64,000 bases of DNA from positions 1,709 to 65,708 of the forward strand of contig JAFSNT010000230.1 of NCBI GenBank assembly GCA_017443295.1, given 5' to 3'. Below are positions 47,510 to 50,680 of this stretch, one piece after another. Each line of letters starts with the position of its first letter. Position 1 is the stretch's first letter. Position numbers and translations under genes: made by a program. The notes beneath the pieces were generated by a model that saw only the letters and a program-made list of their open reading frames with translations, searched no databases and had not been told where the DNA came from. Origin of the DNA: Clostridia bacterium. GTDB taxonomy: Bacteria > Bacillota > Clostridia > Christensenellales > Aristaeellaceae.

Positions 47510-47971
47510 TTATTTTATATTGATCCAGATTCCGGTATCGTGAATAGAAGCATCTTCCATATTGTTATAAAAGTTTTTCGCTTCATCATTATTTGCCATC
47601 AATGCAATCAATAAGCCTACGCCCTGTTCTTTGCATTTCGTGCGTAATGCGTTCAACAGTGCCTGCGCTGTTCTGTGGTGTCTTTCACTTTTCAGCACGC
47701 AAATCCAATCAAGGTAAGCGCTAAAGCAGGTCGCATCACTTCGGCTGCTGATAAGAGAAGCATCAATTCTACCAATAACCCTATTATCTTTCAGCGCGAT
47801 AAGGGATAACGCTGTGTTAAACCTTGGATCATCAAAGCTCTGCTCTAATTGTTTTTCATACGCTTCATCAGGTTCCCAGTAATAGGTGTCCGGCTCCTGC
47901 TTTCTTAATTCCAATTCAAAGGCAATTACTTTCTGAATGTCTTCTTTTTCAAGTTCCTTTATCTCAAACAT
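47510..47971 (-). CDS. GNAT-family N-acetyltransferase (low-GC gene)
   Basis: 153 aa with a GNAT core (..LDWICVLKSERHHRTAQALLNAL..). AT-rich. Confidence 0.7.
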   Translation of the reverse strand: MFEIKELEKEDIQKVIAFELELRKQEPDTYYWEPDEAYEKQLEQSFDDPRFNTALSLIALKDNRVIGRIDASLISSRSDATCFSAYLDWICVLKSERHHRTAQALLNALRTKCKEQGVGLLIALMANNDEAKNFYNNMEDASIHDTGIWINIK

Positions 47972-48059
47972 ACGGTTCCTCTTGCTCTACTGTATGAAGG
48001 AATAACGAATTTTTTCTGCGCAAATCATCCCGGCAGATCGCTCACAAGCACGAAAATGC

Positions 48060-48087
48060 TTGACAATCCTGCCAAAGGGGATATAAT
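48060..48087 (+). promoter_or_regulatory. promoter of the orphan structured RNA
   Basis: TTGACA, 16 nt, TATAAT, followed by AAAGACGAGGAGT. Confidence 0.6.
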
Positions 48088-48093
48088 AAAGAC

Positions 48094-48455
48094 GAGGAGT
48101 GAACCACGCACGCGGTTCCTCTTTGAAGTTCTTACCTAACTTGCGATTCGCATCGCAAGAACAGTCGTCACTTGGCCGAGTGGCGGCTGTTCTTTTGTTT
48201 GCGATGCGTTTCGCTGATGACGATGGTCACAGTGTACTTTCCAATATGGAATGTAATACGCTTTCGCACCACCCCCCTTTTCAGAAGGTGTCCGAGCATT
48301 CCGCAACCTCAATCGGCGCAACTCCGCACTGCGGAGATTGCTTGTTTCGGTTGACCAAAGCGCTGACGATATACCCGCCACTGGCGGTCGTCAGCGCTTT
48401 GTCCACCTGCGCGTTTGTTGTTCACTCCCGGCCCTGACGGATCAGGGCTTTTTTA
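48094..48455 (+). ncRNA. orphan ~360-nt structured RNA candidate, class unknown
   Basis: TTGACA-16 nt-TATAAT promoter at 48060-48087. Several long hairpins (48140-48159, 48157-48194, 48358-48401). GC-rich stem plus T-run terminator at 48431-48455. The only ORF (48099..48437) starts inside the GAGGAG with no spacing. Confidence 0.5.
48431..48455 (+). terminator. intrinsic terminator of the orphan RNA
   Basis: gccctga cgga tcagggc followed by TTTTTTAT. Confidence 0.7.
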
Positions 48456-48624
48456 TTGTATGAAAAACCCCGAAATTTGTCAATAGTGGCTTGTTAGACC
48501 GAAAACGGCATGCGGTAATACGTCCACATCATGAACGAAGATTTTGAACTCACTGAGTACAAAATTTGCGGACTTTCCAACAACAGCATTTGCTGTAGCC
48601 TGTCCTTCGCTAAACTGGAATTTG

Positions 48625-49227
48625 TTATTCTGTATCAATTTTTACCTTTATTTCCGTGTCGTTTTGCTCTCTCATTTCGTAAATCATTTCCAGTTCTGCT
48701 ATAACATCTTCTTTTCTTCGAATAAACCCCTCAAAATGACTGACTAACAAGAAGGTAGCGTTTAGTTTTTTCAAAACCGCTATTTCTTCCTGCAAAAGCC
48801 GGGCATCGTATATATAACAGCCATCTCTCACTTTGCTGTAAAGTGCATCGCCCACAAATGCATAAGTATTGTCTACTTCCAAGCCCAAACTGCCTTTTGT
48901 ATGGCTGGAAGGTAAGGGAAAAATATGCAGATTTCCGATATAGAGGCTTCCACACACAATTTTCCCTTTGGAAATATATTCATACGTTTCTTTTGATAAG
49001 TAGAGTTCCCTGGTTTGAATCTTATTAATATTTCCAATATGGTCCTGATGAAAGTGAGATAAAACTATGTTATAGCCTCCATCCAAATCAGTTATATGAT
49101 TCTCTCCGTTGCCCACATCATAGAGCCAAGTGACGCCGTTATCTCGAATAATCCCAATTTCTGCAGAGAGAGGGTTTTCAGAGGATGCAATGTAACTGAT
49201 CTTATCATTTATTTTTATTTCGTCCAT
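48625..49227 (-). CDS. MBL-fold metallo-hydrolase (low-GC gene)
   Basis: HxHxDH motif LSHFHQDHIGN. 200 aa. Confidence 0.75.
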   Translation of the reverse strand: MDEIKINDKISYIASSENPLSAEIGIIRDNGVTWLYDVGNGENHITDLDGGYNIVLSHFHQDHIGNINKIQTRELYLSKETYEYISKGKIVCGSLYIGNLHIFPLPSSHTKGSLGLEVDNTYAFVGDALYSKVRDGCYIYDARLLQEEIAVLKKLNATFLLVSHFEGFIRRKEDVIAELEMIYEMREQNDTEIKVKIDTE

Positions 49228-49251
49228 TTATCGCCACCACCAAACTTCGAT

Positions 49252-50313
49252 TTATGCATCAGTTGCTGAAAGCCTGAGGTATTCCCGCACCGCCTGCACA
49301 AACCCTTCCGCCAGATCGCCCGTCAGCTTTTTCACGGGCTTGCCGTGGATGAACAATTCGCCGCAGTCCTTGCCGCCGCACAGGGCGATGTCCGCGTCCC
49401 TGGCTTCGCCGGGGCCGTTGACCACGCAGCCCATCACCGCCACAGTAACAGGCAAATCAATATCGGAAAACTCCTTGGTCACCCGCTGGGCGATGCCCAT
49501 GACGTTGATTTGCGTGCGGCCGCAGGTGGGGCATGACACGAACCGGATGCCCTTGCGCAGCCCCAAAGCGCGAAGGATTTCCAGGGCGGCTCTCGGTTCG
49601 TCCACCGGGTCGCTGGTCAGGGACACGCGCACCGTGTCGCCGATGCCGTCCAGCAGCAGCGACCCGATGCCGATGGCGCTTTTCACCGTGCCCTGGCCCG
49701 GCAGGCCCGCTTCGGTGACGCCCAAATGCAGGGGATAATCGCACACCTTGTGCATCAGCCGGTAGGCCGCCACGGTGGTGGGCACGTCGCTGGCTTTCAG
49801 GGAAATCACGATATCGTCAAAGCCCGCTTCCTCCAGCAGCTTCACGTGATTCAGGGCGCTGTCCACCATGCCCTGGGGGGTAAGGCCGCCGTACTTGGCC
49901 AGGATGTCCTTTTCCAGGGAACCGGCGTTGACCCCGATGCGGATGGGCACATGGTGCATCTTGGCGCAGTCCGCCACCCGGCGCACCTTCTCCGCGCTGC
50001 CGATGTTGCCGGGGTTGATGCGCATTTTGTGAATGCCGTTTTCCATGGAGGCGATGGCCAGCGTGTGGTCAAAATGAATGTCCGCCACCAACGGCACCGG
50101 GCTTTGATCCACCAGCCGCCGCACCGCCCCGGCGCACGCCCGATCGTACACCGAAACGCGCACCAAATCGCACCCCGCCGCCGCCAATTGCCTGATCTGC
50201 TCCAGGGTGGCGGCCACGTCCCGGGTGTCCGTATTGGTCATGGATTGAATGGAAACAGGCGCGCCGCCGCCGATCAATACGCTGCCCGCCTTTATCTGTT
50301 TTGCTGCGCCCAT
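49252..50313 (-). CDS. ispG: 4-hydroxy-3-methylbut-2-en-1-yl diphosphate synthase
   Basis: ORF trimmed to the ATG at 50313 (GGAGGG upstream). ..PVSIQSMTNTDTRD.. and a C-terminal CPTCGR FeS motif. Confidence 0.9.
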   Translation of the reverse strand: MGAAKQIKAGSVLIGGGAPVSIQSMTNTDTRDVAATLEQIRQLAAAGCDLVRVSVYDRACAGAVRRLVDQSPVPLVADIHFDHTLAIASMENGIHKMRINPGNIGSAEKVRRVADCAKMHHVPIRIGVNAGSLEKDILAKYGGLTPQGMVDSALNHVKLLEEAGFDDIVISLKASDVPTTVAAYRLMHKVCDYPLHLGVTEAGLPGQGTVKSAIGIGSLLLDGIGDTVRVSLTSDPVDEPRAALEILRALGLRKGIRFVSCPTCGRTQINVMGIAQRVTKEFSDIDLPVTVAVMGCVVNGPGEARDADIALCGGKDCGELFIHGKPVKKLTGDLAEGFVQAVREYLRLSATDA

Positions 50314-50348: not shown

Positions 50349-50377
50349 TTGACATTTTTCAACGATATGCATATAAT
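50349..50377 (+). promoter_or_regulatory. promoter of the sRNA candidate
   Basis: TTGACA, 17 nt, TATAAT, followed by AAAGACAGGGAGT. Confidence 0.55.
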
Positions 50378-50383
50378 AAAGAC

Positions 50384-50470
50384 AGGGAGTTGGTAGCTCG
50401 CGGAGTTTATCGCCTGCCGGTGATAAAATCATGAAAGCCACCGCGTATGCCAGTACGCGGTGGCTTTCTC
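50384..50470 (+). ncRNA. ~85-nt sRNA candidate convergent with the 30-aa toxin-like gene (putative type I antitoxin)
   Basis: TTGACA-17 nt-TATAAT at 50349-50377. Ends at the bidirectional terminator 50436-50465, so the 3' ends of the two transcripts would overlap. Confidence 0.4.
50436..50465. terminator. bidirectional terminator shared by the sRNA and the toxin-like mRNA
   Basis: agccaccgcgta tgccag tacgcggtggct, with T-rich tracts on both strands. Confidence 0.6.
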
Positions 50471-50475
50471 ATTGC

Positions 50476-50568
50476 TTATTTGTGATTCTGATTCAGAATG
50501 AATTCGATCAGTTTCAGCAAGAGAGTCATGGACGCGATACAAATCATGGTGATTTCATACCCGCTCAT
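50476..50568 (-). CDS. 30-aa hydrophobic peptide, BsrG/Hol-Tox-like type I toxin candidate
   Basis: Read by eye; below the ORF-track length cutoff. ATG at 50568 preceded by AGGCAGGTGAT. Peptide MSGYEITMICIASMTLLLKLIEFILNQNHK. Own consensus promoter at 50652-50680 and a shared bidirectional terminator. Confidence 0.5.
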   Translation of the reverse strand: MSGYEITMICIASMTLLLKLIEFILNQNHK

Positions 50569-50651
50569 GTGCATCACCTGCCTTTCGTTCAGCAGGTGCA
50601 AGCTCCGCGTATTGTCTCCCTGTCTGCCATGGATCGCTCCACGGCAGATTT

Positions 50652-50680
50652 ATTATATGGGATAAGATATATGTTGTCAA
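50652..50680 (-). promoter_or_regulatory. promoter of the 30-aa toxin-like gene
   Basis: On the minus strand: TTGACA, 17 nt, TATAAT. Confidence 0.55.

Follow-up and report, generated by a model that had tools for sequence, protein, structure and literature searches.

A probable type I toxin-antitoxin-like module with two convergent, overlapping genes and an atypical cationic peptide in a Clostridia genome

The region around 48 kb of a 64,000-nt stretch of DNA from a Clostridia bacterium (contig JAFSNT010000230.1; the whole stretch is referred to here as the window) was described in an initial annotation as a single orphan, highly structured non-coding RNA (ncRNA) of about 360 nt, transcribed from the plus strand. 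Comparative data revealed two convergent, overlapping genes instead, and the region probably represents a type I toxin-antitoxin-like module composed of two convergent, overlapping transcription units, one for the mRNA of a small peptide on the minus strand and the other for an antisense small RNA (sRNA) on the plus strand. The architecture of the locus, the coding status of its open reading frame (ORF) and the strand to which each structure belongs were established by comparison of related copies. The type I reading is based on the convergent overlapping genes, the restrained translation of the mRNA, the stronger antisense promoter, the occurrence in multiple copies, the decay of ORFs whose antisense promoter is kept, the mobile neighbours, and the presence on viral contigs. 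The definition of a type I system, and the convergent arrangement with a long overlap in Clostridioides difficile, follow PMC6563280. The locus is best regarded as a new family within a known kind of system, one whose candidate toxin is atypical.

About 75 related copies were retrieved from rumen and gut Clostridia genomes, metagenomes, and viral contigs; the homologous loci and contigs that were compared with the window carry labels such as L004 and L013, and WIN denotes the window copy. Scans with back-translated patterns returned 31 loci in species-representative genomes, all of them metagenome-assembled Clostridia from the rumen or gut (Clostridiales, Christensenellaceae, Oscillospiraceae, Ruminococcaceae, and Lachnospiraceae), together with 40 metagenome contigs and six IMG/VR viral contigs. 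The family is undescribed and is common in rumen Clostridia. Tandem or multiple copies were found, namely three in L098 (~1.1 kb) and two each in L046 (3004/3384), L032 (3016/4394), and L041 (2138/3004), and some members of these arrays are frameshifted or truncated. The ORF is damaged in about 8 of 36 copies, and the antisense promoter is kept in most of them (L039, the second copies of L041 and L046, L055, L056, and L057). The neighbours of the copies include type II toxin-antitoxin genes, recombinases, and an IS110 transposase.

Promoters were scored as matches to the 12-base -35/-10 consensus, out of 12. Eight promoter-like sites scoring at least 11/12 are present in the 64-kb window, and four of the eight make up two convergent pairs, one at the 48-kb locus and one at a sister locus at 50 kb. 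The near-consensus promoter on which the initial annotation was founded was recovered on the plus strand at 48060-48087 with all 12 positions matching (TTGACA-16-TATAAT), and is assigned here to the antisense sRNA. The peptide mRNA has a promoter of its own, located at 48483..48455 on the minus strand (TTGACA-17-TACAAT, 11/12) and directed into the region; this promoter had been missed, as had the small minus-strand ORF and an internal plus-strand terminator at 48157-48201. In most relatives the sense promoter is located about 115-135 nt upstream of the peptide motif (short forms) or about 220-235 nt upstream of it (long forms, including the window), and its -10 box is always slightly off consensus (TACAAT, TAAAAT, or TAGAAT). 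Among the 37 copies that make up the genome set and the earlier loci, most have the opposite-strand promoter, its -35 box starting 109-116 nt past the stop codon and its score usually being 12/12. An independent metagenome set gave the same promoter in 34 of 35 evaluable copies, 32 of them at 12/12, and its position in intact copies was +107 to +114. Since the sense promoter scores 10-11/12 everywhere except in one truncated copy and the antisense promoter mostly reaches 12/12, the antisense promoter is consistently the stronger of the two.

The structures of the peptide mRNA were traced from its 5' end. About 6 nt past the sense -10 box, a hairpin occurs in nearly every relative, its sequence varying and its pairing being kept (GCCCUGA..UCAGGGC, GUCCCGAAAGGGAC, GCCUCGCAAGAGGU). 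In the window it lies at 48430..48449 on the minus strand; read on the plus strand together with its T6 tail, it was taken in the initial annotation for a strong terminator, and both hairpin and T6 are indeed present, but the hairpin belongs to the 5' end of the minus-strand mRNA. The following segment of 30-45 nt forms a helix with the outermost 3' nucleotides of the mRNA (-34 to -61 kcal/mol), and the sequences differ by subfamily. The 5' arm of this long-range, end-to-end helix in the window is 48403..48429 (inverted repeat I1) and the 3' arm is 48094..48121, both on the minus strand; the latter may alternatively fold into a local hairpin, which with the GUCUUUAUUAUAU behind it is a candidate terminator of the mRNA. 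In 28 of 29 loci the end-to-end helix has a more favourable energy when formed by the mRNA strand than when formed by the antisense strand (means -49.7 vs -40.0 kcal/mol; Wilcoxon p = 3e-6), with 146 G-U pairs on the mRNA strand and 64 on the antisense strand over the 29 loci. Because of this higher stability, the helix that would close the supposed 360-nt RNA is attributed to the minus-strand mRNA.

Directly upstream of the start codon, upstream sequences from nearly all of the 35 distinct copies could be read as a hairpin made of an anti-Shine-Dalgarno arm, a GAAA-type loop, and a Shine-Dalgarno (SD) arm, the arms themselves being variable. The SD-sequestering hairpin of the window occupies 48270..48290 on the minus strand (CACCUUCU-GAAAA-GGGGGGUG). 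Upstream of it, an extra domain of about 110 nt in the 5' untranslated region (UTR), at 48292..48402 on the minus strand, defines the "long" variant and contains the hairpins 48356-48401 and 48322-48336. This domain was found only in the window, L030, and L039, both hairpins showing compensatory changes, and it is deleted in L004 and missing from the relatives with a short UTR. The linker AUCAACCGAAACAAGCAAUCUCC within the domain is identical in the window, L030, and L039.

The conserved small ORF is located at 48263..48168 on the minus strand and comprises 31 conserved codons (KRITFHIGKYTVTIVISETHRKQKNSRHSAK followed by a stop; core RITFHIGKYTVTIV). An exhaustive HMMER search with the 43-aa translation returned 15 cluster representatives, which are 30-86 aa long once two proteins of >2,000 aa are set aside and which share the common core MRITFHIGKYTVTIIV.ETHRK..NSRHSAK. 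Over an 18-codon core in 35 distinct copies, the mean entropy at the three codon positions was 0.56/0.17/1.32, a sequence pattern that is the signature expected of a translated sequence under purifying selection. In a variant with 96% identity (L013, L014, and L020), the changes within the ORF 48299..48168 consist of three synonymous and two non-synonymous substitutions and one in-frame 3-nt deletion. Based on the homologous small ORFs, the codon-position pattern of substitutions, and the in-frame and synonymous changes of the variant, the ORF was considered to be protein-coding. The 3-nt periodic substitutions that the initial annotation had named as evidence against an ncRNA thus do occur in the homologues, on the opposite (minus) strand. 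A word-indexed protein search returned only six close relatives, all named "hypothetical protein" at most, as small ORFs are rarely called as genes. The peptide measures 25-37 residues in intact copies, within the size of the small protein gene (usually <60 aa) that is characteristic of type I systems; its shortest natural version, of 25 aa (MRITFHIGKFTVTIIVKSNSRHSGK), is found on viral contigs. The only long plus-strand ORF (112 aa) had been judged not to be a gene, and this judgement was confirmed: the in-register antisense frame ranges from 35 to 220 codons across loci, and its most variable base would fall on codon position 1.

The antisense sRNA, the candidate antitoxin, is predicted to extend over about 106 nt from 48094 to 48201 on the plus strand. 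Its layout, consisting of stem-loop SL1, a variable linker, SL2, and SL3 with a U-tract, is the same in about 25 of 30 copies. In the window, SL1 (48094-48121) is a 5' hairpin (GAAGAGC...GCUCCUC), SL2 (48140-48159) is a short hairpin, and SL3 (hairpin 48157-48194, with the U-tract TTTTGTTT to 48201) is an intrinsic terminator about 106 nt past the plus-strand start; a terminator of this type at this distance is kept in all relatives. SL3 overlaps the final codons and the stop codon of the peptide ORF. All 30 copies show a U-G wobble in SL3 on the sRNA strand, and 26 of the 30 show a second one. On the mRNA strand these would be C-A mismatches, and SL3 is therefore under selection in the antisense RNA, where it serves as the terminator. 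Its nucleotides are kept even where the peptide is in a different frame (AGC CGC CAC TCG GCC AAG TGA, encoding SRHSAK, in WIN; GCC GCC ACT CCG CAT AAG TGA, encoding AATPHK, in the L047 group), and the C-terminal residues of the peptide are therefore largely dictated by the RNA. For SL2, pairing is kept among 26 distinct hairpins and six of six pairs have changed on both sides, a count that is biased upward because the hairpins were picked beforehand by folding.

A covariance model of the sRNA matches the window at 48094-48203 with 90.5 bits (E = 2e-20), a match that is partly by construction, the window copy being one of the 30 on which the model was built. As follows from the overlap, the last ~110 nt of the mRNA, among them the 3' arm of the end-to-end helix, are fully complementary to the sRNA. 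A cis-encoded antisense RNA that overlaps the toxin mRNA, another characteristic of type I systems, is thus predicted from the promoter, the three hairpins, and the terminator. The proposal of an ncRNA class that is absent from Rfam and starts at the plus-strand promoter is probably correct in that sense, but the RNA would be about 106 nt long (48094 to ~48201) and end at the conserved internal terminator, and it is not an orphan, being antisense to the 3' part of the mRNA.

A mechanism can be proposed for the module, in which transcription of the two units, repression by the sRNA, and toxicity of the peptide are inferred. An mRNA of about 360 nt would be made from the minus-strand promoter at 48483..48455 in a folded and poorly translated form, restrained by the pairing of its 5' segment with its own 3' end and by the sequestration of the SD in a hairpin. 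The sRNA of about 106 nt would be made in excess from the promoter at 48060-48087 and would form a duplex of about 100 bp with the 3' part of the mRNA. Formation of this duplex would lead to degradation of the mRNA, with RNase III as the likely nuclease, and/or hold the mRNA in its inactive fold. Only once the sRNA runs out would the ORF yield its product, a cationic peptide with a predicted beta-hairpin and a disordered basic tail. Indirect support for toxicity is provided by the tight translational control, the decayed ORFs that keep the antisense promoter, and the multiple copies.

In Bacillus subtilis, bsrG/SR4 and txpA/RatA are type I systems with an overlap at the 3' ends. The locus resembles these two systems, and likewise the CD2517.1/RCd8-type systems of C. 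difficile (PMC6563280), in its convergent transcription, in the long overlap at the mRNA 3' end, in encoding a small peptide with a charged C-terminus, and in its prophage or island contexts. The long 3'-end overlap suggests control by duplex-dependent degradation. Unlike in bsrG/SR4, txpA/RatA, and CD2517.1/RCd8, to which neither the RNAs nor the peptide show sequence similarity, the peptide of this family is without a transmembrane segment and has a predicted beta-hairpin, and the terminator of the sRNA lies within the coding region and dictates the last residues. In hok/Sok and in aapA1/IsoA1 of Helicobacter pylori, the full-length toxin mRNA is inactive through a long-range 5'-3' interaction and sequestration of the SD, and analogous helices (end-to-end and SD-sequestering) are conserved in the present family. 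In these two systems the antisense RNA is directed at the 5' part of the message, and hok is overlapped by the mok reading frame; in the present family it is the mRNA 3' end that is covered, together with the 3' arm of the end-to-end helix. The peptides are unrelated.

A second type I toxin-antitoxin-like locus, with a classic hydrophobic toxin-like peptide, is predicted at 50349-50680, between ispG and rseP. Its promoters, both 12/12, converge from 50349 (plus strand) and 50680 (minus strand), a bidirectional terminator at 50433-50468 is common to its two RNAs, and its ORF at 50574..50476 on the minus strand encodes a 32-aa peptide (MHMSGYEITMICIASMTLLLKLIEFILNQNHK) whose best 19-residue Kyte-Doolittle window is 2.05. 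The two loci share convergent consensus promoters and, in the mRNA, a 5' hairpin, an end-to-end helix, and an SD hairpin with a GAAA loop, and they are alike around the SD and the start codon (CGAAAGG.GGUGAUG.GCAUG); the sister locus differs in its hydrophobic peptide and its shared bidirectional terminator. The likeness of the 48-kb RNA to the small transcripts at 50.4-50.6 kb, already pointed out in the initial annotation, was borne out by a 19-nt similarity to 50372-50390 with two mismatches, two matches being obtained in none of 100 shuffles, and by the related designs. The covariance model of the 48-kb sRNA family did not detect the sRNA at 50.38 kb, and the two loci are therefore not one sequence family. 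A Pfam search of the sister peptide gave no match, including to the holin-like toxin family that had been expected. The combination of the same RNA design with a hydrophobic peptide supports the type I reading of the 48-kb locus.

Several observations weigh against that reading and are considered together here. Toxins of type I systems are usually, although not obligatorily, hydrophobic peptides for which a transmembrane helix is predicted and whose C-terminus is charged (PMC6563280). The 48-kb peptide has the charged C-terminus and is cationic (net charge +7/+8), but its best 19-residue Kyte-Doolittle window is 0.4-0.6, compared with >2 for classic type I toxins, and a hydrophobic transmembrane helix is absent. 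In the AlphaFold2 prediction, strands 3-10 and 13-20 form a beta-hairpin and the basic tail behind it is disordered, which is atypical for such a toxin; the block-mean pLDDT, the confidence score of the prediction, was 87 and 92 over residues 1-20, on a shallow alignment of seven sequences. Searches of Pfam, NCBIfam, and PHROGs with the window peptide and five homologues gave no match, PADLOC gave none among the window ORFs, and the plus- and minus-strand ORFs of the region were likewise without a match in Pfam, NCBIfam, PHROGs, and PADLOC. On the RNA side, besides the upward bias in the SL2 count, the hairpins form on both strands, so that only the G-U asymmetry assigns a structure to a strand, and transcription of the plus strand could continue past SL3 as far as the second terminator, at 48449. 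The window copy itself has AAG at the family start position (48263..48261), where nearly all other intact copies have ATG, GTG, or TTG, with GTG and TTG being common and ATG being used in the 96%-identical L013. Alternative in-frame starts of the window copy are GTG at 48272 or 48269, abutting the SD, and ATG at 48299. Because of the AAG, the copy in the window may be weakened or inactive; its sRNA gene is intact, and it is possibly a toxin gene that has lost its start codon while its antitoxin was kept.

These properties of the peptide feed an alternative in which the locus is a small-protein gene under antisense RNA control with a non-toxic product, such as a regulatory, nucleic-acid-binding, or phage-related peptide whose expression is merely tuned by the antisense RNA. 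The cationic peptide has too little hydrophobicity for a transmembrane helix, its predicted beta-hairpin with a basic tail and the lack of any matching toxin or defence model fit such a role, and the RNA architecture is silent on what the peptide does. The control of translation is, however, very tight (SD sequestration, end-to-end helix, weak start codons), as is typical of type I modules; the antisense promoter is always the stronger one, the copies are tandem or multiple, the ORFs decay with the antisense promoter kept, the contexts are mobile, and a classic hydrophobic toxin-like peptide is the product of the sister locus, which shares the design. Such a non-toxic peptide is regarded as unlikely, but as a real alternative. 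If the type I reading holds, it is conceivable, if doubtful, that the peptide founds a new class among type I toxins with a mechanism of its own, in which a cationic beta-hairpin of about 17 residues carries a disordered basic tail. In place of a transmembrane helix, its activity would then come from self-assembly, from damage to the membrane on the inner side, similar to that caused by beta-hairpin antimicrobial peptides, or from binding to nucleic acids or the ribosome, and its C-terminal residues would be set by the terminator hairpin of the antitoxin and not by protein function. In the literature covered, which is incomplete, neither the peptide nor a type I system from the rumen was found to have been described.

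The reading of the region as one plus-strand structured ncRNA of about 360 nt, from 48088 to 48455, has in its favour a perfect plus-strand promoter, a hairpin with T6 at 48430-48455 that would stop plus-strand read-through, and a stable fold of the full stretch (z = -10.05 against shuffles for 48089-48456). The reverse strand, however, folds equally well (z = -9.90). Moreover, a terminator about 106 nt past the start is conserved in every copy, in 28 of 29 loci the minus strand forms the better end-to-end helix, a conserved peptide is encoded on that strand in the middle of the region, and about 110 nt of the supposed RNA are absent from L004 and most relatives. The long hairpins on which the proposal relied are present (48140-48159, 48157-48194, and 48356-48401), but they are not all parts of one RNA; outside the sRNA of about 106 nt, the structures of the supposed unit (hairpins 48322-48336, 48356-48401, and 48430-48449, and the end-to-end helix) are those of the mRNA. 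The comparative data thus largely refute the single ncRNA, which is now very improbable. The Rfam comparison that had been called for gave no family at the gathering thresholds over the full 64 kb, which covers RNase P, tmRNA, the signal recognition particle RNA, 6S RNA, riboswitches, and known antitoxin sRNAs; a local search of 47950-48650 with E values up to 10 returned only sub-threshold chance matches, the best with 20.8 bits against a gathering score of 49.5. BLASTN of a 431-nt region against phage and plasmid collections gave no match.

It was also considered that the region could be a minus-strand 5' leader, riboswitch-like or an attenuator, controlling the downstream GNAT acetyltransferase gene at 47971..47510. 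The earlier statement that no gene lies downstream on the same strand holds for the plus strand only; on the minus strand, the GNAT gene is downstream of the minus-strand promoter, which points through the region towards it from 48483 with no strong minus-strand terminator in between. Among the relatives, however, the gene downstream of the module is a different one or lies on the other strand (MazE, DUF7698, and others) and no consistent linkage to GNAT was seen, the module occurs in tandem arrays, and the supposed leader holds a conserved coding ORF and faces a conserved antisense promoter. In view of the variable downstream genes in particular, the leader was rejected, and there is little more than a slight chance that it is correct. 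Least credible of all is the reading as a miniature mobile element, with terminal inverted repeats of 19 nt (48096-48114 and 48410-48428) that serve as signals in the DNA and not as RNA helices: inverted repeats do stand near the ends of the unit, which occurs in many genomic contexts and in several copies per genome, but the strand-asymmetric G-U wobbles in the repeat arms make sense only for RNA, the arm sequences vary between loci with complementarity kept, and the presence of promoters, an SD hairpin, and a coding ORF speaks for a module that is expressed.

The module constitutes a well-delimited family that is amenable to sequence comparison, and its RNA architecture is unusually legible. 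Its candidate toxin departs from the hydrophobic-helix rule that is used by most prediction pipelines. If the peptide proves toxic, searches for type I toxins must be extended past hydrophobic peptides, and the module would offer a compact counter-selection or containment cassette for anaerobes. For annotation, the locus illustrates that what looks like a "highly structured orphan RNA" may turn out to be a pair of convergent genes that overlap, the structures being split between the strands.

In the window, the module resides between polC and ispG in an islet at 47.4-49.25 kb that also contains the GNAT gene and a gene cassette. The GC content of the region (0.50-0.54) is above that of the two flanking genes (0.36-0.46), as had been noticed before, and because the background of the genome is about 0.62, the whole 47.4-49.25 kb stands out as a low-GC islet. 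A 441-nt query (window 48040-48480) is 100% identical on contigs with flanking rseP/ispG of different length (L003 and L018), where the GNAT and 200-aa proteins are identical too, which suggests a recent exchange between strains or species. The 200-aa MBL-fold-like gene lies on a cassette of about 643 nt (window 48611-49253). This cassette is 99.8% identical in a different context, between AhpC or GNAT genes and cysE-cysS (L011, L012, L016, and L019), and L004, otherwise collinear with the window, lacks it. The element resembles a mobile cassette with a single gene. A link between the module and the MBL-like gene was rejected, since the cassette is a separate one that is found elsewhere without the RNA and L004 keeps the RNA without the cassette. 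Directly upstream of the mRNA promoter there is a candidate short ORF at 48480-48638 on the minus strand, whose start is abutted by the 200-aa cassette. In the cassette-free L004 (3400-3560), reading by eye suggests an ORF of about 50 aa that starts with MRKSHFSEEQV...

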